From positions 1 to 29,701 of the forward strand of contig JBFYMY010000140.1 of NCBI GenBank assembly GCA_041304645.1: a DNA stretch of 29,701 nt, in the 5' to 3' direction. A program made the translations under genes and the position numbers. Within the stretch, counting starts at the first letter, position 1. Each line of letters starts with the position of its first letter. The notes beneath the pieces are model-generated. The model made no database searches. It saw only the letters and a program-made list of their open reading frames with translations, and had not been told where the DNA came from. Source of the stretch: Thermoplasmatales archaeon. Lineage in GTDB: Archaea > Thermoplasmatota > Penumbrarchaeia > Penumbrarchaeales > Penumbrarchaeaceae. Positions 1 to 27,456 of this stretch are shown here, in pieces.

Positions 1-1
1 T

Positions 2-5487: not shown

Positions 5488-5521
5488 AGGACTCACTATA
5501 CCCGCCGATGAACGGACCCCC

Positions 5522-5528: not shown

Positions 5529-5544
5529 CCTATCCTTCAGATTA

Positions 5545-7113: not shown

Positions 7114-7208
7114 CTCATTCTATACGGGCCTTCTGATTCTCGATATTTAATCCTTTGCCGTGATGCTCCGAATGGCGGCTAGGACCTGGTTTGGGATCGC
7201 CTGATAGC

Positions 7209-7898: not shown

Positions 7899-7945
7899 AT
7901 GCTTTTCAAGAAAGATTTATGATAGGAACCATCCTACCCGGGTCC

Positions 7946-9280: not shown

Positions 9281-9299
9281 AAAAAAAGGAGATGACACG

Positions 9300-10388: not shown

Positions 10389-10407
10389 AGTGTAAGAACA
10401 GAGTCGT

Positions 10408-10443
10408 TTCGTTAACCGTGGTTAATTAACCATGGTTAACGAA
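10408..10443. repeat. 36-bp near-perfect palindrome made of two 14-bp sub-palindromes
   Basis: TTCGTTAACCGTGGTTAA|TTAACCATGGTTAACGAA has 17 of 18 positions complementary. It contains TTAACCGTGGTTAA (10412-10425) and the perfect palindrome TTAACCATGGTTAA (10426-10439). Confidence 0.9.
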
Positions 10444-10517
10444 TGTATCTGATATTGTAGGGTAGATTGATGCTATCCTATTCTGCATAAGTATGGAGCG
10501 GTTTCTAAATATTGTCC

Positions 10518-12191: not shown

Positions 12192-12264
12192 ATATGTGGA
12201 CCTTCCAGTCCCGGGAATGTCCGAAAACACCCTAGGGACGTCAAATATCCAACATACTATAAGA

Positions 12265-14379
12265 TTAATCTTTCCCTGTAAAGAACCGTATGGGCGCATT
12301 AAGCTCCGGGTCCAGGACAGAGAGCTCCCCCAGTTCCTCCCTGAAATGTACCGCTCTTTTGTCCATTATCACGGAGAACCCCCGTTCCTCCTCCGACCGT
12401 ATCATCCTTCCGACGGCCTGCAGTATCTTCCTGGCCGCCGGGGCGTGGACGGTATATTCCCAGCCCTTTCCGAACCTGATATCGTAGAACGATGACAGAC
12501 TTCTCTGCCTTGCATTGGGCTTGGGGTAGGGTATCCCAACTATCAGAACGAGCTCAAGGGACCTGCCAGGATAGTCCATGCCTTCCGAAAGCCTCCCCCC
12601 CATCACCGAGCAGAGGACCCCCCCTCGGGAGGCCCTGAAATCATCCACCAGCTCCATAACATCGGACTGTGACGAGCCCCGCCTTTCCATGAAGAACGGT
12701 CTCCCTGAAAGAAGGTCCTCCTTGAGGGTCGTGCCATCCTCGAGCTCCTGGACGCCCAGTATGTCCTCCATCAGGTCGAAGGAAGGGAAGAACAGGGCGG
12801 TGTTCCTGCCCCTTACCCCGTCCAGGATCCGGAGGACCCTATCCCTGTACCTGGCCTTCATATCCGGGTCCTTCCTCAGCATCTCGTAGCTGGTGCACAG
12901 GTCCTGGGTGTAGGTCAGCATCCTGTTCCCCGGGGGGAATGGCGGAGGGAGCTTCAGAAGCTCGGTGTCCCCCGGCAGACCCAGCGTGTCCCTGTACTCC
13001 TCCAGGGGGGATAGGGTCCCGGAGAGATGGACGGAGGAGTGGACCTTGACCAGGTCACCAGTCACCTGAGAGGGGTCCATCGCGAAGGCCTCGAGATAGA
13101 GCTCTCCGGGACGCTGACCCTTTACTATGAGGGGGGAATAGGCAGTGAAATCGAGCTCGTTCCAGGCAAGGAAGAACTGTGCCGCCCTGTGGATGTACGA
13201 ACGCGGGAGCCTCCCCTGCGCCCTCCTTGTGTCCTGTATGGAGGTTCCGTACTGGAGCATCTCGGAGAAGCCCCTCTCCAATTGGGAAGAATTGGACCGG
13301 AGCTGCACCATCAGCGTATCCATCAGGGCCGCTGGTGGCACCGTGCCATCCTCGTCTATGAGGAACTCCTCGGCGACGGTCTGAAGTGCCCCTGACAGGG
13401 CATCTATGAGGAGGCTGACGGTGAACGGACCGACATCCTTGTCCCCGAAGGTCCCCGCCTCGGAGGCAGCAAGCCTGAGGGAGGTGAGCGATATGGACAG
13501 GGAGCAAAGCTCCCTAGCGAACTGAGCGACGTTGTGGGCCTCGTCGAAGATCACAATGAGGTCCTCAAGGCCGCACCCCATCCATTCCAACAGCCGCCTC
13601 CTTATGAAGGGCGACAGGAAGAATATGTAAGGTGCCGTGACAAGGACCGAATCCGAGACCATCCTCTTGGTGGTCTCGTAGGGGCATGTCCCCATGGACA
13701 GGCACTTCTGGGCCATCTCCTCGGCAGTCGGGGAACAACCCCTTGCCCAGGACCTGGCCTCGGCCCCCTCGTCGAGGAGGTAGGCGGAATAGAACCTGCA
13801 TTCACTGCCATTTACGGGCTTCCCGGACATCCTAGATAATGTGACGCGCTTCCTATCCCCGCACATCTTCGAGAGCTCCTCGGGTGTGCCCGTGAGGAAC
13901 TCCGGGTCCTCGGAGGCGAGCGGGCACATGTTTCCCCTGCCCTGGATGGCGGAGCAGACCCCCTTCCCGGGCCCGCCCTCCCAGGGCCCCGTCATTGGCC
14001 CTATCTTATGAGCGCTGCCAACGGGGGGTCGCTCGCCCCTTTCCCCGTTGAGCTCCCTGAGTATGTCATCGACGATATCCACCGGCGGACCGGAAGGGGG
14101 CGGTAGCACGCCATCGACCGAGCAGGACCTGATCCGTCTGTACTCCTCCACGACCTGCCTCTGCTGCGAGTTCGTCCTTGTGAGGTATAGGACCCTCTTC
14201 CTGTCCCTGTATGCATGGAAGAGGGCAGGGGCGAGCGAGGAGACGGTCTTCCCCGAACCCGTACCCGCTTCTATGGCTATGTGGCCCTTATGGTCCATCG
14301 ACCGGTCCATACGGTCCACCATTTCGACCTGGATAGCCCTCATCCTGTAGGGGAAGAAAGACAGCAGTTCGGACCGCAT
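12265..14379 (-). CDS. xpd: XPD/Rad3-family 5'-3' DNA helicase with Fe-S cluster
   Basis: Walker A EAGTGSGKT, RTNSQ, DEAHN, SGTLSP, GRLSEGMDY, IVGIPYP and QAVGRMIR. Four Fe-S ligand cysteines are present (GNMC, KMC, ECRFY, TCPYE). Confidence 0.93.
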   Translation of the reverse strand: MRSELLSFFPYRMRAIQVEMVDRMDRSMDHKGHIAIEAGTGSGKTVSSLAPALFHAYRDRKRVLYLTRTNSQQRQVVEEYRRIRSCSVDGVLPPPSGPPVDIVDDILRELNGERGERPPVGSAHKIGPMTGPWEGGPGKGVCSAIQGRGNMCPLASEDPEFLTGTPEELSKMCGDRKRVTLSRMSGKPVNGSECRFYSAYLLDEGAEARSWARGCSPTAEEMAQKCLSMGTCPYETTKRMVSDSVLVTAPYIFFLSPFIRRRLLEWMGCGLEDLIVIFDEAHNVAQFARELCSLSISLTSLRLAASEAGTFGDKDVGPFTVSLLIDALSGALQTVAEEFLIDEDGTVPPAALMDTLMVQLRSNSSQLERGFSEMLQYGTSIQDTRRAQGRLPRSYIHRAAQFFLAWNELDFTAYSPLIVKGQRPGELYLEAFAMDPSQVTGDLVKVHSSVHLSGTLSPLEEYRDTLGLPGDTELLKLPPPFPPGNRMLTYTQDLCTSYEMLRKDPDMKARYRDRVLRILDGVRGRNTALFFPSFDLMEDILGVQELEDGTTLKEDLLSGRPFFMERRGSSQSDVMELVDDFRASRGGVLCSVMGGRLSEGMDYPGRSLELVLIVGIPYPKPNARQRSLSSFYDIRFGKGWEYTVHAPAARKILQAVGRMIRSEEERGFSVIMDKRAVHFREELGELSVLDPELNAPIRFFTGKD

Positions 14380-14492: not shown

Positions 14493-14873
14493 ATGAGGAT
14501 GAAGGTCAAGTGCGGCAACGAGGACTGTCGGACGGAGTTCTTCGTTGACAGCGCGGAGCCGGTATGGACATGCACGGAGTGCGGAAGGGAGATCACCAAC
14601 CGCAACTACCCGTTCCTTACGGCAAAGTTGATGCAGGCCAGGATAGACGGACCAAGGGCGGATTGGAACAAGGCCTTCTCGGACCTGATAGAGCTATCGA
14701 AAAAGGAGATAGCGGCAAGGACGGAGGGGGGGAAGAAGGTGGCGGACCTATCGTTCCTGGATGAGGCCGCCAAGAATCTCAAGGGCAAGAAGCGTACAAA
14801 CGAGGAGTGGAAGAAGTTGCATGACGCGCTCCTGGAGCGTTCCCGGCAGGCGGTCCTTGCGCTCGAGGCATGA
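14493..14873 (+). CDS. Hypothetical Zn-ribbon protein (126 aa)
   Basis: CGNEDC...WTCTECG followed by a charged helical region. Codon usage is GC3-rich like its neighbours, and TTTTTAG lies about 35 nt upstream. Confidence 0.75.
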   Translation: MRMKVKCGNEDCRTEFFVDSAEPVWTCTECGREITNRNYPFLTAKLMQARIDGPRADWNKAFSDLIELSKKEIAARTEGGKKVADLSFLDEAAKNLKGKKRTNEEWKKLHDALLERSRQAVLALEA

Positions 14874-15218: not shown

Positions 15219-16379
15219 TCACGTCACTATTTCGGCCAATCTATCCTCTTGAACGGCTCTGCGGACCTCCATGGCGAGCCTCCTTCCTGTGGAAACGGTC
15301 CGCCTCCAGATGGAATTCCCATAGGGATGGCCCACCCACATGTGGACGTTGGTCCCCCCGCCGATCCTTGGAGCGACATCGTAGATGAAGAAGTCCATGT
15401 CCTTGTCAACGCAGGTCTGGAGGCAGAAAGGCCCTATGATACCGGGCGGATAGTGCTCCTTTGAGGCCTTGACATAGCTCTCGGCCATCTCGAAGACCTT
15501 CTCGAGCAGCGACTCCCTCAAGGTCGCCGAGTTGTGGCCGCAGACCGTGTACTCGGGTATCATTTGTTGTTGGTTCAAGGTCATCTGCTGGGGGGCGGGC
15601 AGCCTAACATGCCCGTCGAGGGAGGTCTCGAACCTCCAGTCCACGCCCAGGAGCTCCACCGGCGACATCTCCTCTTCCAGCGGCGAGTAGAACAGGTCGA
15701 AATTGAACACGGGGCCTATCACATAACGCTCTATCCTCGCATCCTTTAAGGTCATTTCGTCTATGACACCCTGCTCCACGAGCTTCCTGGACTTGGTCAT
15801 GTACTCCTCGTAGGAAGAGGCCGTGAAGAAGCCCCTCTCCAGCTTCTTCTTCTTGTGGTGGAGCTTCACGATGACGAGCCGGTCTATGTCCCTGGGGTCC
15901 TCGACCCGCTCGGGGAAGGGGAGACCAGCCTTTTCGAGCAGCCAGTAATAGCTCTGCCGCTCCTCTCTCTCTTCCGAGCGGAGCATCCCTCTGCTGCCTA
16001 CCATGGGAACACGGAAATCGTTCTCAATGGATGCGATGTCAACGTACGAGGTGAATGACCTGTTCGGGACCCACAGAAGGGACCTCTGGCGCATCCAATC
16101 CTGCCACCGGGGCTCCATCACATCCTTGTACCTGTCAAGGACGATGGCATCGTCCACCATGCCCCTTTGCAGCTTCCCGTCCAGCCCCCTCCTGGCCTTG
16201 AAGTAATGGGAATAGGTCCTTTCCCGCCCCTTCTGGCAGAAAGCCGTGGTCCTGAACCCCTCTTCCACGGCACCGTCGCAGGCATCGAGCGCAGAATGGG
16301 ATGCTATCATCCCTATGGTGACATCGTCCCTGTCGTATCCCCTGACCATCCTCTGGACCTCTGCGCGATCGAGCATCAT
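15219..16379 (-). CDS. purP: PurP-family formate--AICAR ligase (FAICAR synthetase or close paralog; ATP-grasp)
   Basis: IGMIASHSALD...GAVEEGFRT, VPNRSFTSYV, GSRGMLRSEER, LERGFF, IGPVFNFDLFYSP, YTVCGH..ATLRESLL, IIGPFCLQ, DVAPRIGGGTN and GRRLAMEV. A GGTGA RBS is adjacent to ATG-ATG (16379/16376). Confidence 0.9.
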   Translation of the reverse strand: MMLDRAEVQRMVRGYDRDDVTIGMIASHSALDACDGAVEEGFRTTAFCQKGRERTYSHYFKARRGLDGKLQRGMVDDAIVLDRYKDVMEPRWQDWMRQRSLLWVPNRSFTSYVDIASIENDFRVPMVGSRGMLRSEEREERQSYYWLLEKAGLPFPERVEDPRDIDRLVIVKLHHKKKKLERGFFTASSYEEYMTKSRKLVEQGVIDEMTLKDARIERYVIGPVFNFDLFYSPLEEEMSPVELLGVDWRFETSLDGHVRLPAPQQMTLNQQQMIPEYTVCGHNSATLRESLLEKVFEMAESYVKASKEHYPPGIIGPFCLQTCVDKDMDFFIYDVAPRIGGGTNVHMWVGHPYGNSIWRRTVSTGRRLAMEVRRAVQEDRLAEIVT

Positions 16380-16407
16380 CTCACCGGACCGGCCAAGGGA
16401 GCGGCCC

Positions 16408-16417
16408 GATATATATC
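16408..16417 (-). promoter_or_regulatory. Putative TATA element for purP
   Basis: GATATATATC lies 29-38 nt upstream of the purP start and resembles the element upstream of xpd. Confidence 0.45.
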
Positions 16418-16505
16418 TTCGGAGGTGGCACCTACCCCGTCCGGACGCAGGAAGGGTGTGTGTACAGGAATGTATTAATACGGTTGCTGGCAGATTAAGC
16501 ACATA

Positions 16506-16512
16506 TTATAAA
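16506..16512 (+). promoter_or_regulatory. Putative TATA box for the giant-protein operon
   Basis: TTATAAA sits in the 200-bp divergent gap; a GGAGG RBS at 16569-16573 precedes ATG 16579. Confidence 0.55.
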
Positions 16513-16578
16513 CGTTCCCTCGCTGTTAACGGGTGTTGCAGGGCTTGCCCTTTGAGCGGGGGAAGCACGGAGGCGACG

Positions 16579-19500
16579 ATGCGGTTTGCTACCCTATACC
16601 GGTCCTTTGCGGTGGTCGTTGCCCTGGCGATAGCCGTCTCGGCCATTATGGACCCTATAAGGCCCTCCAACATGTTCAGCAGGGAGCAGGGCGACAATCC
16701 GTCCGGGGCGGTCCCCGGGATCGATACCGACGGTGACGGCCTCAAGGACATCTGGGAGGACCTCAACAGGAACGGGGTGCTCGAGATGGAGGAGAGGTCC
16801 CTCTCCGACCCCTACGACCCCGACAGCGACGGTGACGGTATAGAGGACGGATCGGAGTTCGACCTGCTGGCGGCCAGGGCAGGCAATTTGAGCTCCGCTC
16901 CAAACTGGCTCAGGATGTTCTCCCCATCCTTGGAGTCCATGGCGCTTGAGATAGGGGTCCTGGGCCCCAATGGGGATGTCGATAGGGACGGTTCGGTGAA
17001 CATACTGGACTCGGACAGCGACGGTGACGGGATCATGGACGGGGTGGAGCTCTCCGCCGGGACGGACCCTCTGGACCCTGACAGCGACGGTGATATGGTA
17101 CCCGACGGCAGGGATACGGCCAATGGGTTCGTGAAAGATGCCGATGGCAACGGCCTTGATGACGATCGGGAGGAATATTTCGGCCTGGAAGGCCCCGACG
17201 GCGACCCCGACGGGGATACCATGACGAACCTTGTCGAGTTCCAGAGGGGTACTGACCCGACCCATCAGGACCTTTTCGGTGGTCATGTAGGTTCTTTCAG
17301 GCCCACGGACCTGCTTGATATACGCTCGCCGTCCACCCCTATCCTCAGGGTCGAAGGTACAGGGGCAAGGTACCTCAGGGTCGCATCTTTCGACAGGTAC
17401 GTCAACGGGGAATGGCTCCGCACACCTGACCTGCCTCTCACGGCCATAGCCCCTGACGGGTCGGTCAAGGAGGCACGCATCACCCTCCAGGGTAGGTGGC
17501 GCTTCGATATGCCCGTCCATCCCTGGACCATCGAGGCCAAAGCGCTAGCCCCCTACTCTCTCTTTCCGGGTGCCGGTTCGGCCGAGATGGTGATGGAGGA
17601 ACAGATCTCATATTCATGGGTCCCTCTGCAATCTTACACCGTATCATATCTGGAGCCGTCATATGACCCGACGCTCCTTAGCGAGAGCGGTTCGAACGAT
17701 GTCGTTCCATCGAGCTACAGAGAGGTACCCTCAGGCCTCTCTGACGACGTTAAAGAGCTTGCCGAGACCTGGGCGGCAGGACCCTCATCAACATACGATA
17801 AGGCCATGGACCTGACGTTCCGTCTATGGTCCAGATGCATCTATTCCTCAGCCGGAACGACCGGTGACGCTGAGAGCCGCACGGTAAGGGACTTCCTTTT
17901 CATGACCCTAAGGGGCAACGCTCTCGACTTCTCGACCGCCTTCGCCATCATGTTGAGGGTGCAGGGGGTCCCGACGAGATTGGTGGCAGGCTATTCCCTT
18001 GGCATCGATGATGGGGGCTACCGGACCTACCTTGAGGGTCACTTCCACATCTGGGTCGAGGTCTACATCGACGGCATCGGGTGGGTGCCTTTCGAGGTCA
18101 CCCCCCATGCCATCTCAGCAAGGGGTGGGGCCGGGGTCCCGGTGGACGGGGTCGATCCCTACGTGCTCGGTCCCAACTCGGGGGACGGCGGGGGAACGCT
18201 CAGAGGGGGCGGTGACCCAGCGAGCGATCCGGACCAGGACTACGACGGGGACCTGGTCATCAACGGCCGCGAAAGGGAGTTCGGCACCAATCCCTATCTC
18301 CCGGACACGGACGGCGACGGGCTCGATGACGGACTGGAACTCGACCTCTACGGGACAGACCCCCTCTCAAAGGACACGGATTGGGACTGGTTAGGGGACG
18401 GGGAGGAGGTCACGAAGGGCAGGGACGGTTACATAACGGACCCTTTGGTCCCGGACACGGACGGAGGCGGTCTGTGGGACGGTCTGGAATCCCTCTCCAC
18501 CCCGCAGCTTGACCCTCTGGACCCCGAGGATGACAGGCGTGTCACGGACATAGACGGGGACGGGCTCGATCAGGCCCAGGAGGCGTTCTATGGTACCGAT
18601 CCTTTAAGGAACGATACGGACATGGACGGTCTGCAGGACGGGGAAGAGCTCTTCACGTACGGGTCATCCCCCCTCTCAAAGGACACGGACGGGGACGGTC
18701 TCAGCGACAAGGATGAGACCTATCCATCGTCGGGTAAACCCTTTACGAACCCCTCGGCGGCGGATACCGAATTTGATGGTCTCGATGACAGGTTCGAACT
18801 TGACAAGGGTACAGCCCCCGGCAGGTCGGATACGGACCAGGACGGCCTCAAGGACATGTTCGAGCTCGAGCTGGGGACAGACCTGAAAGGTTGGGATACC
18901 GACGGTGACGGTCTGTCCGACGGCAGGGAGGTGAAACTGGGCACAGACCCGTTGAAGGCCGATACCGATGGTGACGGAACGAATGACGGCCCCGAGGTCT
19001 GGAACGGTCTGAACCCCTTGTCGGTCGAAGGTCGGTCCGAAGGCCTTCTCGACGTTGACGGTGACGGCCTGACGGACCGGCTCGAGCTTGAGATAGGGAC
19101 CGACCCTTTCAAGAACGATACCGACGCCGATGGACTAACCGACGCCCTGGAGCATTTCGAGACAGGAACAGACCCGCATTTGAACGACACGGATGGCGAC
19201 GGTCTGTCCGACGGGGCGGAGGTCTCTCTGGGCACATCCCCCAGGCTCAACGATACTGACGGCGACGGGCTCGACGACAGGGTCGAGCTCGTTCTTGGTA
19301 CAGACCCCCTCTCAAGGGATACGGACCGGGATATGTTGTCAGACGGAGCGGAGGTCCTGTCAGGTACGAACCCCTTGACCATGGACACTGACGGGGGGGG
19401 ACTGGGCGATGGTATCGAGGTAGCTGTTCCAAGGGACCCGTTGAAGGGTTCGGATGACCTGCCTTTTCCGCCGGACACGGACGGTGACGGTCTGCCAGAT

Positions 19501-22500
19501 GTACTGGAGGCGCTTTTCGGGACCGACCCATTGGTCCGGGACACCGACGGCGACGGTCTTTCGGACGGGGAGGAGGCCATGCTTCTCAAGACCAACGGGA
19601 CCCTCTCCGATACCGATGGTGATGAGCTGTCGGACGGTGATGAGGTCCGCCGATACCTTACCGACCCCCTCGCGTGGGACACTGACGGCGACGGCCTGAC
19701 CGACGGCAGCGAGGTCATAGACTGGGGCACCGACCCTCTGTGTTCCGATACGGACGCCGATTCTCTCCCTGATAGGAACGAGACCGTCATAGGGACCGAT
19801 CCGCAGAGGTACGACACCGATGGTGACGGTCTTTCGGACGGGGGGGAGGTCATGCTTGGGACCGATCCCCTGAAGGACGACACGGACGGAGGGGGGGCCA
19901 TTGACGGCATAGAGGTCCGTTCCGGTGCCGACCCGCTCGACCCAAGGGACGACCCACCCTACAGGGACCAGGACAACGACGGATTGCTGGACCGTGAGGA
20001 GGATAAGGACCTTGACGGGAAACTGGATGATGATGAGACCGACCCGCTCGACCCCGACACCGATGGCGACGGTCTGAGCGACATGGTCGAGGTCAAAGGC
20101 CTCCTGGGGCACATCACCGATCCCAGGTCCCGGGACACTGACGGTGACGGGATAGAGGACCTGGAGGAGATGGTCCTGGGGTCTGACGGATACATCACTG
20201 ACCCTGCAAAGAGGGATACGGACGGTGACGGTCTGAACGACGGCGACGAGGTCTCCGGGCTCTACGGTCTTCCCAGCAGTCCAGAGTCCATCGACGGTGA
20301 CGGGGACAACCTGAGCGATGTCATGGAGCTGAACGTCTCCAGGACTGACCCTTTGGACCCTGACACCGACGATGACGGTCTCCCTGACGGCTGGATGGAC
20401 GGCTGGGTCGACGGGAAGGTCAACGGGGTCAAGGACCTGGGCGAGTACGAGGACCGTAACCTTGACGGCCTGGTGGAGCCGGGGGATTGGAACGGGGGGG
20501 CCGGTCCCGGTGAGTCGGACCCATTGGAACCTGATACCGATGGAGGGGGTGTGACCGACGGCAAGGAAGTCCTGCACAGGCCTCTTCCTTTCGATCCGCT
20601 GAGCCCCCACGATGACGGTTTCATACTCGACAGCGACGGAGACGGGCTCCCTGACATCGATGAGATGCTGCTTGGGACCAAATGGAACGACCCAGATACC
20701 GACAAGGACGGTCTGGTGGACGGCCCCCTGACCGTGACCATCGATGGGAAGGAGATGAAGGGCGAAAGGTCCGGACATAACGGTTTCGACCCCACGGACC
20801 CTCTTGACCCCGATTCCGACGGCGACGGCGTCAAGGACGGCCTGGAGGTATCCGACCGGACCGATCCCAACGACCCCGATACGGACGGGGACGGCCTCTG
20901 GGACGGTTATGACATCGTTGACAGACAGGGCAGGCCTCGTGAGGGGGAGCGGACCCCCAGGAACAGGCTGGACCCGTCAAGGCCTTATGCCCCGACGGAC
21001 CCGTTGAAGGCAGATACGGACGGGGACGGCCTGCTGGACGGGGGGAACCTCGAGCTGCCTTCAGGGGTTATACTTCCAGGCGAGGCCAAGCATGGGACGG
21101 ACCCGCATTCGCCCGATACGGACGGCGACGGTCTCACGGACGGGGCCGAGGTCACCATTTACTTTACTGACCCGCTGTCGCCGGACACGGACAGGGGCGG
21201 GATGCCGGACGGTCTAGAGGTCGAGAGGTCCATGGACCCTCTGGACCCGTCGGACGACGACAGATGGCTCGACAATGACGGTGACGGACTTCTGAACTTC
21301 GAAGAGAGAGAGACGTTCTACTATCCGCTCACGACCGTGGACTGGAACGGTGACGGTCTCATGGACAACAGGCCCGACCCGAACGATGCGGACACGGACG
21401 GCGACGGCATCTCCGATGGGCAGGAGGTGCTGGTGGAGGGGACCAATCCCCTCACTGCCGATACGGACAGGGATGGCCTGACGGACCTTGAGGAGCTGGT
21501 ATCATATCGCACCGACCCCAACAGGCCCGATACCGACGGTGACAGCCTGCCGGACCTGGCGGAGGTCACCCATGTCTGGGAAGATAGCTATGTTGATTGG
21601 ACCGGTGACGGGAGGTTCGACAATACCACCGACCCGAACGATAGGGACACGGACAGGGACCAGCTCACGGACGGGCGGGAGGTGACCGAGGGTACGAACC
21701 CTCTCGACCCCGGAGACCCGGGTTCGGAACCCCTCCCCGAAGAGCGACCGATAGTCCTGATCGAGACCGCCCCGCAGACCCTGGTCAAGACCACCGAAAG
21801 GAAGGACGGGGCCTTCAAGGTCGAGGGGAGGGTGACCGGCAGGGACGGAAGGCCCGTTAAGGGTGCTTTCGTTTCGGTCCTCATAGTCCCTGAAGGGATG
21901 CCCGCCGAGACCATCCTCACGCTCGAGGCGAACCCCGCATACAGGGTCGGCAGTTCGACCGGTACGGACGAGGGGGGCCGGTTCTCGGCAAGCTGCGCTC
22001 CTGTCAAGGGTACTCCCGTAGGCCCGGTGGTCCTTTACGCGGTCACCAGGGAAACGGTGCATTCCTTCAAGTTATTCACGCCCTCGGCCTCTGACCCCAT
22101 ATCCCTGACGGTCAGGTCATCTTCAGCTCTCCTGCTGGGACCTTTCCCTTCCACGTCCGTCATAGGCAGCAGGGTCCCGTTGAACGGTAGTATCGTGGAT
22201 GCAATGGGAGAGCCCCTAAGGGGCCTTGACCTTGATATATCGGTGGACGGGAAGGCCGCAGGTGCGGTACGTTCCGACGGCAAGGGCGTTTTCCTCGTTT
22301 CCCTGGAGCTCCCGAAGGAGGAGGGTGAGCATTCAGTTGAGGTCGGTTACAGGGGGGGACAGTACATAGATAGGTCGCAGGTCTCCATCACCTTCGAACT
22401 GGTCCCCGGCCCCGAGGTGAGATTGTCACCTATACCCTCCGTCCTTAGCATGGGGTCGGTCCTCTACGTCAACGGGACGGTGTCCTGGAACGGTCCCACC

Positions 22501-24177
22501 CCAGAGGGCGAGGTCATAATCATGGTCGTCAGGACCGGGGCCTCTGGGCCCGCGGCGGACATCACCGCCCCCTTGAGCGGAGGCGCGTTCACATCGAGCT
22601 TGAGGCTCGTTCCCGAGACCTTCCCTCCGGGCGCTTATATGATCTCGGTCTCCTTCACCATCGCGCCAGGGCAGACCGCGGTCAACTCCTCATTAACCTT
22701 CAGATCGCTGGACAGGACCACCCTCATGGTCCCCGACCTGGAGGTGGTCAGGGGGACCGTCCATTCACTGGATGTCCTCCTCCTCTCCTCGACGGGAGCG
22801 CCCGTGGAAGGAGGGACCGTGCGGGTCACGTTCCCCGATGCTACATGGCTCCCGTCCGGCGCTGCTGTCACCAATTCCACGGGATGGGCGGCCATAATGG
22901 TACAGGTCATCCCAGGTTCGCCCTTGGGCCCTGCAAGTATGATGGTGGAGCATGTGGCGGAAGGGTCCCAGGGGACCGTTGGCGGGACGGGGTCGTTCAC
23001 CGTTTGGGTGGTGGCGCTCTCTAAGCTGACACTTACGGACCCGCCCATGGAGCTTACGCTCCTGGACGGCATGAAGGTTGAGGGCAGGCTCGAGGATGAC
23101 AACGGGGCCGGCATAGTGGGGGAAGGGGTGATAGAGCTCCTGATGGACGGGGTCCAGGTCGAGGTAACGGACTCAAGGGAGGGCGGGTTCTTCACCATGT
23201 CCCATACGATGGACCGGTTCACAAGGACCGGCAGCGGGACCATGACCGTCAGGTTCCGCGACCTGAATGATGAGAGGGCAGGATGGTATCGACCGTCCGA
23301 GTCCTCATGGAAGGCCATTGTCCGGTCCAGGACATATCTGACGGTCGAAGGTGAGCCCCTACCGGGCAGCTTCAACATGACGGTTCGGCTTGCGGATGAG
23401 AAGGGGGCACCCGTAGGGAGCGCACCGATCCAGTTCGGCAAGGGTCTCTCCTACTCCACCAGGTTCACGGATGCTCAGGGAAATCTCACATTGTTGTTCA
23501 ACGGGACGTCCGAGGGGGATGTCCTCTTCCTGAGGTTCCCCGGCGACCCTTCGAGGTTCCTCATTGGCACCGGATACAATACGACGGTACCGGTGTCCAA
23601 AGGGACCGGTCCGCGGATGGACCTTGCCCCCTTCCTCCTTGCAGGCCTCGTTGCAGCAGTGATAGCGGCGGCTGCGGCCATGTACATCCGGGCAAGGAAG
23701 CTCAGAAGGGACTCGGAGCATGATCGTCTCGAGCGGATGGAAAGGCGAACCTTGTACCCGTTCGATCCCGCCGGGAGGACCAACAAAGCCATCTTCGAAT
23801 CATACCGCAGTGTCCAGGACCGGCTGAGGGCCGGCGGGTCAGGCAGGCCTGAGGAGATGACGGCAAGGGAATATTCCACCATAATGACATCGGAGGCCCC
23901 GGAGCTCAGGGAGCTCGACAACCTAACGAAGCTCTTCGAGGAGGCCCGTTACTCCGACCATGAGATGTCGTCCCATCTGATGGGGGTCTCCAAGGATATC
24001 GAACAGAGGCTCCTGCGGTCCGCCGAGGCTGTGGACCATGTGCGGTTGGGAAGCAGGGTATCGGTCATGGGGGCCGAGACCTCCCGGTCTGTCCCCAGAC
24101 CTCAGATGCACAGGTTGAGGATGGATCACGGGAGCGATCTTTTGGACCTCCTCGGCGAGAAGGGGGTGTCCGGTTGA
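16579..24177 (+). CDS. Giant (2532 aa) membrane-anchored protein: TSP3-like Ca-binding repeats, transglutaminase-like domain, Ig-like domains, TM helix, DUF4129
   Basis: Signal-like N-terminus MRFATLYRSFAVVVALAIAVSAIM, then YLRVASFDRYVNGEW (TgpA/DUF3488-like) and GNALDFSTAF..MLRVQGVPTRLVAGY...HIWVEVY..GIGWVPFEVTP (TGase fold). About 50 DxDGDGLxDxxE..GTDP repeats, beta-rich Ig-like segments, a TM helix at ~23623-23690, and SYRSV...EMTAREY...LTKLFEEARYS (DUF4129). The track ORF start at 16246 overlaps purP. Confidence 0.88.
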   Translation: MRFATLYRSFAVVVALAIAVSAIMDPIRPSNMFSREQGDNPSGAVPGIDTDGDGLKDIWEDLNRNGVLEMEERSLSDPYDPDSDGDGIEDGSEFDLLAARAGNLSSAPNWLRMFSPSLESMALEIGVLGPNGDVDRDGSVNILDSDSDGDGIMDGVELSAGTDPLDPDSDGDMVPDGRDTANGFVKDADGNGLDDDREEYFGLEGPDGDPDGDTMTNLVEFQRGTDPTHQDLFGGHVGSFRPTDLLDIRSPSTPILRVEGTGARYLRVASFDRYVNGEWLRTPDLPLTAIAPDGSVKEARITLQGRWRFDMPVHPWTIEAKALAPYSLFPGAGSAEMVMEEQISYSWVPLQSYTVSYLEPSYDPTLLSESGSNDVVPSSYREVPSGLSDDVKELAETWAAGPSSTYDKAMDLTFRLWSRCIYSSAGTTGDAESRTVRDFLFMTLRGNALDFSTAFAIMLRVQGVPTRLVAGYSLGIDDGGYRTYLEGHFHIWVEVYIDGIGWVPFEVTPHAISARGGAGVPVDGVDPYVLGPNSGDGGGTLRGGGDPASDPDQDYDGDLVINGREREFGTNPYLPDTDGDGLDDGLELDLYGTDPLSKDTDWDWLGDGEEVTKGRDGYITDPLVPDTDGGGLWDGLESLSTPQLDPLDPEDDRRVTDIDGDGLDQAQEAFYGTDPLRNDTDMDGLQDGEELFTYGSSPLSKDTDGDGLSDKDETYPSSGKPFTNPSAADTEFDGLDDRFELDKGTAPGRSDTDQDGLKDMFELELGTDLKGWDTDGDGLSDGREVKLGTDPLKADTDGDGTNDGPEVWNGLNPLSVEGRSEGLLDVDGDGLTDRLELEIGTDPFKNDTDADGLTDALEHFETGTDPHLNDTDGDGLSDGAEVSLGTSPRLNDTDGDGLDDRVELVLGTDPLSRDTDRDMLSDGAEVLSGTNPLTMDTDGGGLGDGIEVAVPRDPLKGSDDLPFPPDTDGDGLPDVLEALFGTDPLVRDTDGDGLSDGEEAMLLKTNGTLSDTDGDELSDGDEVRRYLTDPLAWDTDGDGLTDGSEVIDWGTDPLCSDTDADSLPDRNETVIGTDPQRYDTDGDGLSDGGEVMLGTDPLKDDTDGGGAIDGIEVRSGADPLDPRDDPPYRDQDNDGLLDREEDKDLDGKLDDDETDPLDPDTDGDGLSDMVEVKGLLGHITDPRSRDTDGDGIEDLEEMVLGSDGYITDPAKRDTDGDGLNDGDEVSGLYGLPSSPESIDGDGDNLSDVMELNVSRTDPLDPDTDDDGLPDGWMDGWVDGKVNGVKDLGEYEDRNLDGLVEPGDWNGGAGPGESDPLEPDTDGGGVTDGKEVLHRPLPFDPLSPHDDGFILDSDGDGLPDIDEMLLGTKWNDPDTDKDGLVDGPLTVTIDGKEMKGERSGHNGFDPTDPLDPDSDGDGVKDGLEVSDRTDPNDPDTDGDGLWDGYDIVDRQGRPREGERTPRNRLDPSRPYAPTDPLKADTDGDGLLDGGNLELPSGVILPGEAKHGTDPHSPDTDGDGLTDGAEVTIYFTDPLSPDTDRGGMPDGLEVERSMDPLDPSDDDRWLDNDGDGLLNFEERETFYYPLTTVDWNGDGLMDNRPDPNDADTDGDGISDGQEVLVEGTNPLTADTDRDGLTDLEELVSYRTDPNRPDTDGDSLPDLAEVTHVWEDSYVDWTGDGRFDNTTDPNDRDTDRDQLTDGREVTEGTNPLDPGDPGSEPLPEERPIVLIETAPQTLVKTTERKDGAFKVEGRVTGRDGRPVKGAFVSVLIVPEGMPAETILTLEANPAYRVGSSTGTDEGGRFSASCAPVKGTPVGPVVLYAVTRETVHSFKLFTPSASDPISLTVRSSSALLLGPFPSTSVIGSRVPLNGSIVDAMGEPLRGLDLDISVDGKAAGAVRSDGKGVFLVSLELPKEEGEHSVEVGYRGGQYIDRSQVSITFELVPGPEVRLSPIPSVLSMGSVLYVNGTVSWNGPTPEGEVIIMVVRTGASGPAADITAPLSGGAFTSSLRLVPETFPPGAYMISVSFTIAPGQTAVNSSLTFRSLDRTTLMVPDLEVVRGTVHSLDVLLLSSTGAPVEGGTVRVTFPDATWLPSGAAVTNSTGWAAIMVQVIPGSPLGPASMMVEHVAEGSQGTVGGTGSFTVWVVALSKLTLTDPPMELTLLDGMKVEGRLEDDNGAGIVGEGVIELLMDGVQVEVTDSREGGFFTMSHTMDRFTRTGSGTMTVRFRDLNDERAGWYRPSESSWKAIVRSRTYLTVEGEPLPGSFNMTVRLADEKGAPVGSAPIQFGKGLSYSTRFTDAQGNLTLLFNGTSEGDVLFLRFPGDPSRFLIGTGYNTTVPVSKGTGPRMDLAPFLLAGLVAAVIAAAAAMYIRARKLRRDSEHDRLERMERRTLYPFDPAGRTNKAIFESYRSVQDRLRAGGSGRPEEMTAREYSTIMTSEAPELRELDNLTKLFEEARYSDHEMSSHLMGVSKDIEQRLLRSAEAVDHVRLGSRVSVMGAETSRSVPRPQMHRLRMDHGSDLLDLLGEKGVSG
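16723..17271 (+). repeat. N-terminal cluster of about 7 DxDxDG repeats
   Basis: DTDGDGLKD, DSDGDGIED, DVDRDG, DSDGDGIMD, DSDGDMVPD, DADGNGLDD and DPDGDTMTN. Confidence 0.85.
18238..21720 (+). repeat. Main array of about 43 TSP3-like DxDGDGLxDxxE...T(D/N)P repeats (1161 aa)
   Basis: Counted by eye in the translation. Most units are 19-22 aa and are diverged at DNA level. Confidence 0.92.
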
Positions 24178-25400
24178 GGGTCAGTTGGGCCAGGGCGCTA
24201 TCGCTTTCGGTCATGGTGGCGGTAGCTCTTTTCATCCTCACCGCTCTGGCGGCGCCTCTTATCATAGTGGAGACAAGGTCCACCCTGTCGACCTCCGAGG
24301 AAGGTTGGATGGGAGCCTCGGAGTTCCTGAGCATCGCCAAGACCACCGGGGCGAGCGTCATGGTCCTGACCACCACGCCGACGCTGCTCCTTGAGGACGA
24401 GGACCCCGACAAGGTGCTCTTCATCTCCCTTGGCCCTCAGAGGCGGTATACGCTCACCGAGACCCTTGCCCTCAAGAAGTTCACGGAGAGAGGTGGAAGG
24501 CTCCTTGTGGCGGACGATGAGGGCATGACCTCCGGGGTCGCGGAGGACCACGGGGTAAGCTACGCAAAGGGGCAGCTCTACGACCAGGACTTCGTCGGAG
24601 ATGTCAACCACCTCAAGTTCGATGTCTCGACGAGCTTCTTCGACGGTTTCGTCCTCATGAACCGACCCGCCTCGCTGTTCTTCACCTCGGGCGTCGCCCT
24701 CATTGCATCCTCGAGCTCGGCATGGGTCGATCAGAACGGGAACGGCCTGAACGACAATCTGAGCTCCGGTTCGCCCGAGGCCCAGGGCGTGAGGTACCTC
24801 TGTGTCCTCACGGACCCCGACCTGGCGCAGACGGGCGGGGGTGGGGCGGTGTTCCTCTCGGACCCCTCCATGTTCATGAACGGGATGCTGGGTTCGGAAG
24901 GGAACGGACAGTTCGCCAAGGCCCTCATAGAGTTCCTGCTCCCCGATGGCGGTATGATGGTCATAGACGATTCTGTCCACGACCCGCCGCTCCCCTCATC
25001 CCCCGTAAGGAAAGCGGTCTATGGGGTGGCCATGTTCACGACGGACATCAACATGAAGATAGTCGTCGGGACCCTTGTGACCGTGGCCCTTCTCTCCATA
25101 GCGTACCTCTACAACCCCCTGGAAAGGCCCGAGCACGTCTGCCTCCTGGACAGGAGCGGGGTTGCCGAACTTGCGGAGCCGGAGCTCGCACCCGAGGACT
25201 TAAATGAGGCCAGGAAGGTTTTCCTGGACAGGGTCAGGCTCTTCCACGGCCTCTCGGTCGAGGCATTCTCCAGAGCGAGCTGGGAAGAGCTCGATAGGCT
25301 GATAGGCGACAAGGTGCTCTCGGCGTTCGCCCGGAGCGGGCGTTACGATGGGACCATGGAGGGCATCGTGGAGGAGGTGGGACGATGGCAGAGGAAGTGA
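24174..25400 (+). CDS. DUF4350 domain membrane protein
   Basis: N-terminal TM, STSEEGWMGASEF, FTERGGRLLVADD, VFLSDPSMFMNGML..GNGQFAKALI and a second TM helix. The TTG start overlaps the upstream TGA (TTGA). Confidence 0.78.
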   Translation: MRVSWARALSLSVMVAVALFILTALAAPLIIVETRSTLSTSEEGWMGASEFLSIAKTTGASVMVLTTTPTLLLEDEDPDKVLFISLGPQRRYTLTETLALKKFTERGGRLLVADDEGMTSGVAEDHGVSYAKGQLYDQDFVGDVNHLKFDVSTSFFDGFVLMNRPASLFFTSGVALIASSSSAWVDQNGNGLNDNLSSGSPEAQGVRYLCVLTDPDLAQTGGGGAVFLSDPSMFMNGMLGSEGNGQFAKALIEFLLPDGGMMVIDDSVHDPPLPSSPVRKAVYGVAMFTTDINMKIVVGTLVTVALLSIAYLYNPLERPEHVCLLDRSGVAELAEPELAPEDLNEARKVFLDRVRLFHGLSVEAFSRASWEELDRLIGDKVLSAFARSGRYDGTMEGIVEEVGRWQRK

Positions 25401-26638
25401 GGAACTACACTCTGAGGGCCATGGCCTACGCCGCCTCCAGCCTGACGCTTCTGGTGCTCTCCCTGGTCCTATCATCCGAGCTTCTCCTTGTCGGTTCCCT
25501 TGTCATAGGGGCCATCATGCTGCTCTCCTTGACCACCCTCCCGGGGAGGCCCAGGGTCACGGCGGAGATGGACCGGACCCAGGTGTTCGAGGAAGAGACC
25601 GTCCGGGTGGACATGGAGATAGATTCCCGGGGGAGCTGGGGCAACATAGAGGTCTTCCACAGGCTCTCTCCCAACCTCGAGCTCGACAAGGGTTCGAACC
25701 TGGCCTTGCTGCCGCCGGGCAGGAGCCGCCATTCGTTCGTCGTCAAGGCCCCCCTGCGTGGCTACCATCCGACCGGTCCTACCCTTGTCCGAAGGTGGGA
25801 CCCGCTATGGCTATGGTATCGGGAGTCCGCCTCCGGCGAGCCCCAGAACCTGACCGTGTTCCCCGCCATGCACCAAGGCAGGCAGGGGGCCGTGAAGGTG
25901 AGGCAAAACCTCCACAGGCCAGGTGAGATGAAGGTCAAGAGGATCGGGTCAGGAAAGGAGTTCCATTCCATCCGTGGTTACACGACCACGGACCCGTTCA
26001 ACACCATCAATTGGAAGGCGTTCGCAAGGACGGGTAAGCTGCAGGTCAACCAGTACGAGACCGAGACGGTCACCGATGTCATGTTCTTCATAGATGCCCG
26101 CCTTGTCGGCAGGGTCGGGCTAATGACGGACAACCCCGTCGAACGGTCCATCAGATTGTGCGCTTCGCTATCTTCCGCCCTCCTGAACAGGTCGAACAGG
26201 GTCGGTCTTGTGGTCTACGGCCGTTCTGTCAATGTAACAAAGCCTAAAGGCGGCCCAGGGGCGCTCCAGTCCATCCTTCATATACTCACGGACATCACCC
26301 CGTCGGGACAGGACACTCTGGGCTCCAGCGTCACATACGCCCTGTCGTATCTGTCCCCCAACTGCCCCATCCTCATACTCTCTTCCCTTGCTGAGGACCC
26401 CACCGTCAAGGAGGCGGTGAGACAGCTGGTCGGAAGGGGGCACCCGACCCTGGTGGTCTCCCCGTCAGGGGTGGATTTCGAAAGGATGCTCTATTCCGAT
26501 GTGACGGTCCCCAAGTACCTGCTTAAGAAGCTGTCCAGGGAGAACCTCCTAATGGAGCTCGGCTCCATGGGGGCCAGGGTCGTGGACTGGCACCCGGGCA
26601 AGGACGTACAGTGGGCCCTTATGGAGGTATGGGAATGA
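25385..26638 (+). CDS. DUF58 domain protein (vWA-like) with two N-terminal TM helices
   Basis: RGYHPTGP...DPLWL, LTVFP, GSGKEFHSIRGY...DPFNTINWKAFARTGKLQVNQYE, MFFIDAR and NRVGLVVYG match DUF58. It overlaps the upstream gene by 16 bp. Confidence 0.88.
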   Translation: MAEEVRNYTLRAMAYAASSLTLLVLSLVLSSELLLVGSLVIGAIMLLSLTTLPGRPRVTAEMDRTQVFEEETVRVDMEIDSRGSWGNIEVFHRLSPNLELDKGSNLALLPPGRSRHSFVVKAPLRGYHPTGPTLVRRWDPLWLWYRESASGEPQNLTVFPAMHQGRQGAVKVRQNLHRPGEMKVKRIGSGKEFHSIRGYTTTDPFNTINWKAFARTGKLQVNQYETETVTDVMFFIDARLVGRVGLMTDNPVERSIRLCASLSSALLNRSNRVGLVVYGRSVNVTKPKGGPGALQSILHILTDITPSGQDTLGSSVTYALSYLSPNCPILILSSLAEDPTVKEAVRQLVGRGHPTLVVSPSGVDFERMLYSDVTVPKYLLKKLSRENLLMELGSMGARVVDWHPGKDVQWALMEVWE

Positions 26639-27456
26639 GTGCGGTCCTTCAGAAGGCCCTTTTGGTCTGGCCCGTGCTCTGCCTCATCGGGGCCGCGTTC
26701 ATCCTTCCGATCGCGGTACCGGAGATAGGTACTTTCCAGGTCTTCGTATCCGGCTCGCTCGAGGGTGTCCCCGTGTTCCTCTGGTCGGTCATAGGGCTCG
26801 TCCTTGGGGCGGCCGTATCGTTCCTGAGGTCAAGGTGGCCCAGGCAGACCATCCGTTACGGGGCCAGGGCATTCTTGGGCCTGGGCGCCTGGCTCGTGTT
26901 CGGGCTTGTATTATCGCTGTTCATGGGGGAGGGGTCCTATTATGAGAGATTGAAAGGGTCGGTGGTGATAAGGTCGTGGGCCATCATCGTCTGGACCCTT
27001 GTGTGCATGGCCCCGACCATGCTGGGTGTCCACAGCGTCCTTTACCGCTCAACGATGGCTCGGGGGGGAACGGTCCTCTCGTTCCTGCTCTTGGCGCTAT
27101 CGGGCATGGTCTATGCCCAGGCCTCGGAGGTCAGGGTCGCTCATCAGGACCCGTTCCTTTCCATCATCTTCATCTGGGCCGTCCTGGGGTTCCTTGAGGG
27201 GATCAATTGGAGGAACAGGTACGCATCCCTGGATTACGAGGCGCACATGAGCGACATCCTACTTGCCAGGCAGGTGGGTTTCACCCTTGTGTTCATGGGG
27301 ATCGGCGCTGTGGTGGCGGTCGCACCGTTCCTCATAGGCGATTGGCCCAGCACCTACTATGAATCCACAACGATCCTGGGGAAGGCCCTGGTCGGGCTCA
27401 TGGCCATCTCCCCGCTTGCAGTTCTTTCACTGGTCAGGAACCTTTTCGGAAGATAG
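26635..27456 (+). CDS. Polytopic membrane protein of unknown function (about 7-8 TM helices)
   Basis: ATGA overlap with the DUF58 stop, a GGAGG at 26623-26627, and alternating long hydrophobic segments. Confidence 0.78.
   Translation: MSAVLQKALLVWPVLCLIGAAFILPIAVPEIGTFQVFVSGSLEGVPVFLWSVIGLVLGAAVSFLRSRWPRQTIRYGARAFLGLGAWLVFGLVLSLFMGEGSYYERLKGSVVIRSWAIIVWTLVCMAPTMLGVHSVLYRSTMARGGTVLSFLLLALSGMVYAQASEVRVAHQDPFLSIIFIWAVLGFLEGINWRNRYASLDYEAHMSDILLARQVGFTLVFMGIGAVVAVAPFLIGDWPSTYYESTTILGKALVGLMAISPLAVLSLVRNLFGR

Follow-up and report, generated by a model that had tools for sequence, protein, structure and literature searches.

A conserved giant TgpA-like protein of uncultured Thermoplasmatota with about 46 candidate Ca2+-binding loops and no transglutaminase nucleophile

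The subject of this study is a gene at positions 16579 to 24177 of the forward strand of a 29,701-nucleotide stretch of DNA, here called the window (contig JBFYMY010000140.1 of assembly GCA_041304645.1, assigned to a Thermoplasmatales archaeon). Its product, referred to below as the giant protein, is in our view an extracellular scaffold or adhesin that binds Ca2+, is anchored in the membrane and is conserved in uncultured Thermoplasmatota, where it works together with four membrane proteins encoded in the same operon. We put the probability of this reading, which is based on sequence comparisons and structure models, at roughly 0.55. The envelopes of uncultured Thermoplasmatota are essentially unknown, and the gene is a strong candidate for encoding a major surface component because it is large, is syntenic beside housekeeping genes and occurs in no fewer than 14 species-level genomes. 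Prokaryotes commonly have giant Ca-binding surface proteins; what would set the present one apart is the conservation of about 46 loops, the apparent pseudoenzyme head and the link to an uncharacterised archaeal envelope module in a lineage without cultured members.

The giant protein has a mass of 271 kDa, a pI of 4.05, a net charge of about -320 and an Asp content of 14%, and it contains only 3 Cys residues in total. A preliminary description of this gene had proposed a signal or anchor segment, DxDxDG loops, a transglutaminase domain, an acidic repeat array, immunoglobulin (Ig)-like domains, a transmembrane (TM) helix and a DUF4129 domain. This architecture was borne out by Pfam searches, by hydropathy analysis and by a hidden Markov model (HMM) of the repeats. 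The features of the gene and of its immediate upstream region are as follows, all on the forward strand.

16503 to 16512, forward: TATA-like A+T-rich box (ATATTATAAA), about 70 nucleotides before the start codon, in the intergenic region between the divergent PurP gene and the giant gene
16569 to 16573, forward: GGAGG, a motif resembling a ribosome-binding site, 5 nucleotides before ATG 16579
16579 to 24177, forward: giant TgpA-like/TSP3-repeat/DUF4129 membrane protein gene, 2,532 amino acids, a single intact gene
16579 to 16662, forward: N-terminal signal peptide or signal anchor, residues 1-28 (MRFATLYR, 16 hydrophobic residues and a conserved Ser-Asn/Ala), from hydropathy and orthologue conservation
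16699 to 17232, forward: N-terminal block of 5-7 DxDxDG/TSP3-type loops, residues 41-218
17266 to 18222, forward: TgpA-like extracytoplasmic module, residues 230-548, a beta-sandwich plus a transglutaminase/papain-like core, with a family-specific GDGGGTL motif at its end
17920 to 17922, forward: codon of A448, at the site of the catalytic Cys of TgpA, from the alignment to 6G49, the family alignment and 14 genome loci
18046 to 18048, forward: codon of H490, the retained catalytic His
18094 to 18096, forward: codon of E506, in place of the catalytic Asp
18232 to 21711, forward: main array of about 40 TSP3/EF-hand-like repeats of 22-23 residues, residues 552-1711
Within the main array, forward: five conserved DTDGGG...DPLDPxDD junctions, in loops starting at residues 626, 936, 1101, 1319 and 1536
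20338 to 20598, forward: irregular insert in the array, residues 1254-1340, the most conserved segment of the giant protein (...DGLPDGWxDGW...GEYEDRNLDG...GPGE(S/T)DP...DTDGGG)
21748 to 23598, forward: six membrane-proximal Ig-like/MG-like beta-sandwich domains of about 100 residues each, residues 1724-2340
23614 to 23694, forward: C-terminal TM helix, residues 2346-2372, followed by RARKLRR, from hydropathy
23695 to 24174, forward: predicted cytoplasmic tail with DUF4129 (LTKLFEEARYSDH motif; Pfam match at residues 2409-2464) and a conserved C-terminal D(L)xxLLGxKG motif

The repeats were recognised by the Pfam model TSP3_bac (PF18884) with an E-value of 4e-88 (289 bits, 15 independently significant stretches). 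An HMM built from the giant protein itself placed 5 units at residues 41-198 and about 42 units at residues 568-1711. The whole protein contains 43 DxDxDG motifs with a modal spacing of 22-23 residues, and 12-residue loops of the EF-hand type numbered 28 with the strict pattern D-x-D-x-D-G-x-x-D-x-x-[DE] and 46 with a relaxed one. Between residues 560 and 1720 there are 34 DxDxDG motifs, as compared to 1.67 +/- 1.31 (maximum 9) in 2,000 shuffles that preserved the composition; Asp makes up 21.6% of residues 560-1735, and the net charge of this region is -251. The repeat consensus is roughly x-G-T-D-P-L-x-x-D-T-D-G-D-G-L-x-D-G-x-E-V-x-x.

To assess conservation, use was made of orthologues found by scanning one genome for each GTDB species with a 5-sequence core alignment as query, which yielded 14 loci, all in Thermoplasmatota metagenome-assembled genomes (MAGs) from independent studies. 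In an EF-hand or DxDxDG loop, the side-chain ligands are provided by positions 1, 3, 5, 9 and 12. When 9 orthologues that are 41-46% identical overall were compared with the giant protein, the mean identities over 39 loops at these five positions were 0.97, 0.97, 0.98, 0.94 and 0.96, respectively, and only 0.17-0.45 at positions 4, 8, 10, 11 and 13-15; most positions that hold no ligand fall between 18% and 46%. The conserved T/D/P preceding the loop and positions 2, 6 and 7 reached identities of up to 0.85. Likewise, the invariant columns in the block of residues 900-1450 are almost all Asp or Glu at ligand positions. We regard the ligand positions as being under very strong purifying selection, and the repeats as bona fide bacterial-type TSP3/EF-hand-like loops. 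The view that the DxDxDG loops are of the Ca-binding type, as previously proposed, thus agrees with both the Pfam match and the 94-98% conservation of the ligand positions. That about 46 loops are conserved position by position at 41-46% overall identity is unusual, since repeat proteins normally vary in copy number, and it points to a function that depends on length or geometry. The five junction loops are also conserved in position, which implies a higher-order structure.

An acidic array of this kind might alternatively serve as a cation reservoir or mineral nucleator, buffering or concentrating Ca2+ or Mg2+ or templating carbonate or phosphate minerals. The net charge of about -320, the 14% Asp and the tens of potential sites would suit this role, and the names of the MAGs suggest sediment, cold-seep and spring sources. 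However, selection appears to have acted on the exact EF-hand geometry and on the order and number of the repeats, and not on mere acidity. The residues between the ligands vary freely but their spacing does not, and there are no mineralisation genes nearby. We therefore consider this function to be very unlikely.

Residues 900-1450 were modelled with AlphaFold2 from 8 sequences, giving a mean predicted local distance difference test (pLDDT) score of 82.5, with values above 90 for residues ~990-1139; each repeat consists of a loop and a helix of 6-8 residues. Foldseek aligned this model with the type 3 repeats of thrombospondin-2 (1YO8; E-value 4e-6, 283 columns, 25% identity), with a two-repeat unit of Staphylococcus aureus Bap (7C7U/7C7R; 44-45 residues, root-mean-square deviation 0.5 Å, 50% identity) and also with the Ca-binding domain of anthrax protective antigen and iota Ib. 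The type 3 repeats of thrombospondin and COMP (1YO8, 3FBY) share with the giant protein the serial Asp-rich Ca2+-binding loops. The eukaryotic repeats are locked by disulfides and wrapped around a C-terminal lectin-like domain, whereas those of the giant protein lack Cys, each end in a short helix and are 3-4 times as numerous. Bap was also matched by sequence, and the position of the matched stretch, which has two DxDxDG loops, suggests that it corresponds to EF-hands 2-3. The Ca2+ response of these EF-hands is abolished by mutations at loop positions 1, 3 and 12 (PMC7785521). Binding of Ca2+ by the repeats thus has strong but indirect support, at the level of sequence and model, because the ligand positions are conserved and because the repeats resemble the Ca-responsive EF-hands of Bap and the type 3 repeats of thrombospondin-2. 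The likeness to Bap is confined to the two-repeat unit: Bap uses two loops as a switch for amyloid-like aggregation, whereas in the giant protein about 46 loops stand in tandem and form the bulk of the ectodomain.

Arrays of bacterial-type DxDxDG TSP3 repeats on a surface protein are also found in Myxococcus CglD (NF033765) and MtsD. The function of CglD is Ca2+-dependent, and CglD is a lipoprotein with 12 repeats, many disulfides, a beta-integrin-like VWA/MIDAS domain and EGF-like modules. The giant protein scored 413 against the NCBIfam model of CglD (cut-off 400), and this score came entirely from 14 repeat stretches, the best of which covered model positions 154-316. Membership of the CglD family was therefore rejected. 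Indeed, neither a VWA/MIDAS domain nor an EGF-like module was detected in the giant protein by the Pfam scan, it has no lipoprotein signal and, unlike the disulfide-rich CglD, it contains only 3 Cys. A possible likeness in function only exists with Salmonella SiiE (as cited in PMC7785521) and RTX adhesins, which are long surface-anchored molecules with Ca2+-stiffened repeats. These proteins differ from the giant protein in being bacterial, in having BIg or RTX repeat chemistry and in being secreted by type 1 secretion systems.

Since long repetitive genes are a known concern in metagenomic sequence, we considered whether the giant open reading frame (ORF) could be a chimeric or repeat-collapsed artefact of assembly, as would also be compatible with the absence of the exact protein from the gene index in an exact-sequence look-up. 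At the DNA level, however, the repeats are only 60-85% identical to one another, and collapse during assembly is therefore unlikely. Moreover, the same gene is found with the same synteny in 14 independent MAGs from different studies, and the complete genes are nearly equal in length. A close relative (L002) is 80.6% identical over 2,531 residues with 2 gaps, and another (P0152) is 85% identical over 1,321 residues without any gap. Divergent repeats, shared synteny and end-to-end alignments together rule out a chimera or collapsed assembly, which had been named at the outset as a possible undoing of the whole proposal; the chance of such an artefact is negligible. The archaeal nature of the host is confirmed by the genes for fibrillarin, PurP, XPD and HerA that are encoded within the window.

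The ORF opens further upstream, at GTG 16246, and ends at 24177. ATG 16579 is assigned as the start codon because of the GGAGG motif 5 nucleotides upstream and because it begins the N-terminus MRF(S/A)T... that is common to all orthologues. The TATA-like box ATATTATAAA is identical in the two nearest loci (L001 and L002) and is a putative promoter element.

The only strongly hydrophobic segments of the giant protein are located at residues ~5-28 and 2346-2372. In the first of these, a conserved Ser at the likely -1 position and an aliphatic residue at -3 fit cleavage by signal peptidase. If this segment is cleaved, the transglutaminase-like module would form a distal head at the tip of the molecule. 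This module matches Pfam Transglut_core (PF01841) at residues 393-506 with an E-value of 9e-17 (61.8 bits, cut-off 23). A model of residues 217-548 computed with AlphaFold2 from an 11-sequence alignment has a pLDDT of 77.5 and a predicted TM-score (pTM) of 0.84, and its best match in the PDB is the periplasmic domain of Pseudomonas aeruginosa TgpA (6G4H/6G49; Foldseek E-value 2e-16, 289 columns). TgpA (6G49) is also the sole PDB match of this region by sequence (phmmer). The nucleophile context GFCAHYA of TgpA corresponds to GNALDFS in the giant protein, so that the catalytic Cys is replaced by A448. A Cys-His-Asp triad is accordingly absent, the three positions being A448, H490 and E506. At the nucleophile position, Ala is found in 9 and Ser in 5 of the 14 genome loci, Cys in none, and a further orthologue (P0017) has Pro; the Cys is kept only in the distant relatives P0072, P0116, P0091 and P0088 (1,797 residues), which have the same overall layout. 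The variation between Ala, Ser and Pro shows that this site is without the constraint typical of a nucleophile, and the absence of Cys makes transglutaminase chemistry unlikely. Hence, of the TgpA-like transglutaminase domain proposed earlier, the fold was upheld by the Pfam and TgpA matches, but its catalytic competence was not. Judged by its sequence, the module is probably a pseudoenzyme of the TgpA family, and the locus then offers a clear example of a TgpA-family protein that has undergone this change.

It could still be argued that the module is an active enzyme that cross-links or cleaves envelope proteins by means of another nucleophile or a Ser-His-Glu arrangement, and that the repeats merely position it. 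In the family alignment neither the His nor the acidic residue ever varies, the fold is kept and Ser occupies the nucleophile site in 5 of the 14 genomes; in addition, TgpA is a proven transglutaminase (PMC3507681). Against this stand the Ala of the giant protein itself, the mixture of Ala, Ser and Pro elsewhere and the restriction of Cys to distant relatives. Erythrocyte protein 4.2, which is among the weak fold matches of the module, also speaks against it: this protein is a scaffold with a transglutaminase fold that lacks the active-site Cys. An enzymatic role thus appears highly improbable to us.

The Ig-like region precedes the second hydrophobic segment. When residues 1712-2345 (634 residues) were scanned alone, they scored above the Pfam cut-offs for Big_1 (42.7), CarboxypepD_reg (36.6) and MG4 (31.6). 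Nine of 10 scanned family members gave matches in this region, and when a profile of the region was run against the PDB, invasin and the MG domains of alpha2-macroglobulin were matched. The relative P0153 has many Ig-family Pfam domains. Single-sequence PDB searches with the Ig-like region and with the DUF4129 tail returned nothing meaningful. By the positive-inside rule, the DUF4129 side of the C-terminal TM helix is predicted to be cytoplasmic. The DUF4129 domain itself (residues 2409-2464, scanned alone) was detected with an E-value of 1.3e-7 (32 bits, cut-off 24.8), and its motif LFEEARYSDH is present in the orthologues. At the extreme C-terminus (24103-24174, residues 2509-2532), a motif (K/R)(M/V)D(H/P)xxDLxxLLGxKG occurs in the close orthologues, whereas the outgroup giants that retain the Cys do not have it; this motif may represent a partner-binding tail.

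A single TM helix joins the ectodomain with its candidate Ca-binding loops to a conserved cytoplasmic domain with LFEEARYSDH and a conserved tail, which raises the possibility of a Ca2+ sensor, as already considered in the preliminary description. Occupancy of the ectodomain would alter its conformation, and this change would be relayed to DUF4129, which would pass it on to DUF58 or further partners. It is in line with this idea that the EF-hands of Bap act as a Ca2+ switch (PMC7785521) and that a DUF58 gene is located in the same operon. However, sensing would require far fewer than 2,300 residues outside the cell and about 46 sites. One motif excepted, the cytoplasmic part is the least conserved region of the protein (0.37-0.52), no output domain, kinase or MoxR gene is found nearby, and DUF4129 is without known signalling function. 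A role as sensor is therefore unlikely.

Taken as a scaffold or adhesin, the giant protein would work as follows. The N-terminal hydrophobic segment would direct export, and the C-terminal TM helix would anchor the protein with DUF4129 remaining in the cytoplasm. The very acidic chain may be expanded and export-competent in the absence of Ca2+, so that it would plausibly stay unfolded in the low-Ca cytoplasm and fold upon export. Outside the cell, each repeat of 22-23 residues would fold as an EF-hand-like loop and a short helix around a divalent cation that is held by the ligands at positions 1, 3, 5, 9 and 12, amounting to about 46 ions per molecule. Binding of these cations would order the chain into a stalk of fixed length, which would be carried by the six membrane-proximal Ig-like domains. 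The nucleophile-less TgpA-like module would serve for binding or docking rather than as a cross-linking enzyme or protease. Lastly, the giant protein may work with, or be handled by, the DUF4350, DUF58, ~7-TM and Ig-like bitopic proteins described below. The filament projecting from the cell and stiffened by Ca2+ that was suggested in the preliminary description can, on the basis of sequence and model, be retained as a reasonable reading in the form of an extracellular Ca2+-dependent stalk.

Several observations weigh against this interpretation or parts of it. The homology to TgpA favours an N-terminal anchor that is not cleaved; in this case the protein would be a doubly anchored loop with the transglutaminase-like module near the membrane. 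The strong conservation of H490 and E506, of which the latter is invariant like the His, suggests that the old active-site cleft is still in use, likely for binding, and there is a small chance of Ser-based catalysis in the 5 orthologues with Ser at the nucleophile site. Furthermore, the repeat model was computed without ions and has a pTM of only 0.50, which means that it does not show the geometry of a rod or stalk, and the repeat cation might be Mg2+ or another ion rather than Ca2+. The conserved segment at residues 1254-1340 is not accounted for by the proposed mechanism: it contains invariant columns, orthologue conservation peaks here (0.78 at residues 1251-1300), and residues 1273-1301 and 1306-1311, with confidence values below 50, are the only poorly modelled part of residues 900-1450. 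Finally, a MoxR ATPase, which is missing from the neighbourhood, may be encoded elsewhere in the genome.

A bolder version of the scaffold reading would make the protein a Ca2+-loaded 'molecular ruler' of fixed length or a principal surface coat in a lineage of Thermoplasmatota at class level, with a pseudo-transglutaminase head that docks to an envelope or substrate partner, with mounting by DUF4350 and DUF58 independently of MoxR, and with Ca2+-triggered folding that drives or ratchets the export of the 271-kDa chain. We offer this version tentatively and consider it on the whole doubtful. If it were true, it would amount to a previously undescribed type of archaeal envelope system.

The giant gene is the first of a five-gene unit, the other members of which are listed here.

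24174 to 25400, forward: DUF4350 (arCOG01314, GldG-like) protein, Pfam E-value 4.2e-19; its TTG start overlaps the stop codon of the giant gene by 4 nucleotides (TTGA)
25385 to 26638, forward: DUF58 (vWA-like) protein, Pfam E-value 7.7e-13, whose N-terminus has a long hydrophobic stretch; overlaps the DUF4350 gene
26611 to 27456, forward: conserved polytopic membrane protein with about 7 TM helices, assigned to no family; its gene begins before the DUF58 gene ends, and the protein is 37-78% identical in L002, L009 and L014
27496 to 28686, forward: conserved bitopic membrane protein, TM helix at residues 47-65, its ectodomain weakly resembling PKD/Ig domains; the gene closes the five-gene unit

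The DUF4350 protein has hydrophobic segments at residues 8-26 (signal or TM) and 294-312 (TM) and a cytoplasmic tail of about 95 residues. Its gene follows the giant gene in every locus that is long enough (L002, L003, L006, L009, L010, L014, L099 and L100). The DUF58 gene is conserved in L002, L003, L009, L010, L014, L099 and L100; an exact-sequence look-up of its product gave a match on a 2.9-kb contig only. The two family-less membrane proteins accompany the giant-DUF4350-DUF58 series in L002, L009, L014, L099 and L100, and in L099/L100 a gene is present at the position of that for the ~7-TM protein. On an orthologous contig of 154 kb, the same five-gene unit is found with 4-nucleotide overlaps at the first three junctions and with genes on the opposite strand at both flanks. 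No MoxR signature was detected in the window, in the 14 related loci (L001-L014) or within 10 kb in L099/L100 on the 154-kb contig. Within these bounds the locus is not a MoxR-type cluster such as the preliminary description referred to; DUF4350 and DUF58 genes do follow.

The neighbourhoods of arCOG01314 (DUF4350, GldG-like) described by Makarova, Galperin and Koonin (2015; PMC5898192) include a MoxR ATPase along with a vWA protein and membrane proteins of the Ig-like type; these authors predicted that a new complex for secretion or membrane remodelling is encoded there. Like this module, the five-gene unit combines in one operon a vWA-type DUF58 protein, membrane proteins and a DUF4350 protein that has a later TM helix in addition to its signal peptide. 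As for the Ig-like ectodomain, the bitopic protein of the unit shows only a weak match to PKD_4 with an E-value of 0.0045, which is below the cut-off. The unit differs in lacking a neighbouring MoxR gene and in being headed by the giant TgpA-like gene, a first gene that is not mentioned in the cited paper, where the term 'transglutaminase' does not occur. The giant operon looks like a variant of the arCOG01314 envelope, secretion or remodelling module without an adjacent ATPase. With a giant surface protein now linked to the DUF4350/DUF58 module, the published prediction of secretion or remodelling becomes more testable.

The same neighbours would also allow the giant protein to be viewed as cargo, exported or mounted by a machine of DUF4350, DUF58 and membrane proteins in the way of the giant gliding adhesins of the type 9 secretion system (GldG being related to DUF4350). 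This view is favoured by the co-operonic, translationally coupled arrangement with DUF4350, DUF58 and two membrane proteins, and by the predicted secretion system and the similarity to GldG (PMC5898192). On the other hand, the giant protein has its own Sec-type N-terminus and a stop-transfer TM helix, the distant giant P0091/L016 is without these neighbours, and ordinary TgpA proteins are partners of MoxR and DUF58 and not their cargo (PMC3507681). A pure cargo role is decidedly unlikely; it also overlaps largely with the scaffold or adhesin reading and does not exclude it.

One of the closest known proteins is TgpA (PA2873) of P. aeruginosa, for which transglutaminase activity has been demonstrated and whose gene shares a transcript with PA2875 and PA2874 (PMC3507681). 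TgpA and the giant protein have in common an extracytoplasmic beta-sandwich with a transglutaminase core, a TM helix, a cytoplasmic DUF4129 and a genomic link to DUF58. Unlike TgpA, the giant protein has Ala for Cys, Glu for Asp and a single hydrophobic segment in place of DUF3488. Indeed, the polytopic DUF3488 domain (PF11992) was not matched in the Pfam scan of the giant protein, which has one N-terminal hydrophobic segment as compared to 5-7 in the bacterial relatives. With the addition of about 46 TSP3 loops and six Ig-like domains it is 3-4 times longer than TgpA, it is archaeal, and it is encoded with DUF4350 and without an adjacent MoxR gene.

The extent of the family only became apparent in an exhaustive HMMER search, as word-indexed homologue searches with the transglutaminase region, the C-terminal region and a family profile had yielded 1, 2 and 14 matches, respectively. 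The complete orthologues from the genome scan are 2,489-2,552 residues long with 35-42 HMM repeats, and they align at 41-46% identity in one high-scoring segment pair over about 2,550 residues with 32-134 gaps. In one locus (L014:8693-16327) the orthologous gene is split into three frames (2,236 residues, then further segments), which could be due to sequencing indels or could mark a pseudogene. Giant relatives with the same layout are also found among the representatives of 50%-identity clusters (P0002, P0003, P0005, P0009, P0011, P0017, P0072, P0091 and P0116). Shorter relatives with 0-10 repeats (P0087 with 1,153 residues, P0110 with 1,270 residues, P0038 and P0088) have the same frame of N-terminal TM, transglutaminase, C-terminal TM and FEEARYS. 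Within this archaeal family of TgpA-like proteins, the giant protein thus represents the expanded end.

When metagenomes were scanned with the Cys-retaining relatives, mostly ordinary bacterial TgpA operons were recovered, together with one giant. The ordinary TgpA/DUF4129 proteins in these loci are 634-923 residues long where complete, in agreement with the earlier statement that transglutaminase/DUF4129 proteins are usually much shorter. Among the metagenome TgpA loci listed, 7 carry a gene with the MoxR signature and 3 show the full order MoxR-DUF58-TgpA; we take PA2875 and PA2874 to encode a MoxR ATPase and a DUF58 protein, with which this order is consistent. The one giant (L016:8675-15745) is a Cys-retaining protein of 2,356 residues of the P0091 type with 28 TSP3 repeats, from an organism of lower G+C content, and its gene is not followed by DUF4350 or DUF58. 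The association with this operon is thus restricted to the clade in which the Cys was lost. A separate multi-transglutaminase family (P0006-P0036 and others) comprises giants of 1,500-3,300 residues with about five N-terminal TM helices, 3-6 tandem transglutaminase domains and no TSP3 repeats, in which copies that bear a Cys (GTCGxFSSAF) alternate with others that have Ser or Ala.

The architecture had initially been presented as undescribed. No paper describing it was found, and the literature on DUF4129/DUF4350, PF18884, Thermoplasmatota transglutaminase and EX4484-6 gave no description of the family. It is, however, not unique: the architecture is that of a conserved orthologous Thermoplasmatota family that has already been deposited, under automatic names only, such as 'transglutaminase domain-containing protein' (MDG6225458.1) and 'hypothetical protein MUC62_09935'. 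One of the MAGs carrying the gene is labelled EX4484-6, a class recently named Ca. Penumbrarchaeia, and the paper on this class mentions neither adhesins nor S-layers nor calcium; an enrichment of Ca. Penumbrarchaeia has been described (PMC12220078).

On their upstream side, the 14 loci share a KaiC-like gene, an XPD helicase gene, a small conserved ORF and the divergent PurP gene. The small ORF (14493-14873, forward strand, 126 residues), flanked by XPD and PurP, lacks any credible match in Pfam, yet 13 of the 14 Thermoplasmatota loci have it in the same place with 51-85% identity; the contig of the remaining locus, L008, ends inside PurP. The PurP ORF (15219-16502, reverse strand, 427 residues from GTG) is probably overlong, as most orthologues align from residue ~37-43 and one was called at 385 residues. 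The true start would then lie near 16390, and the divergent intergenic region would therefore measure about 190 nucleotides. The KaiC-like ATPase (10518-12299, reverse strand, 593 residues) has a long N-terminal extension with a weak TPR match. Its stop codon is located 35 nucleotides within the gene for the XPD helicase, and both genes are kept together in all loci that reach that far.

At the other end of the window, positions 1-5204 have a G+C content of 43-47%, as compared to 56-64% in most of the remainder, where 1-kb bins at ~10-11 and 28-29 kb dip to 49-53%. The low-G+C region encodes a surface protein of 1,546 residues with 17 GLUG motifs and with PKD and CARDB domains (564-5204), which is preceded by a small CarboxypepD_reg ORF (125-571). 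These 5.2 kb could be a horizontally acquired island. The junction between the low- and high-G+C parts recurs at 98.9% identity in the independent assembly GCA_041304585.1, in which locus L096 corresponds to positions 4452-10769 of the window.

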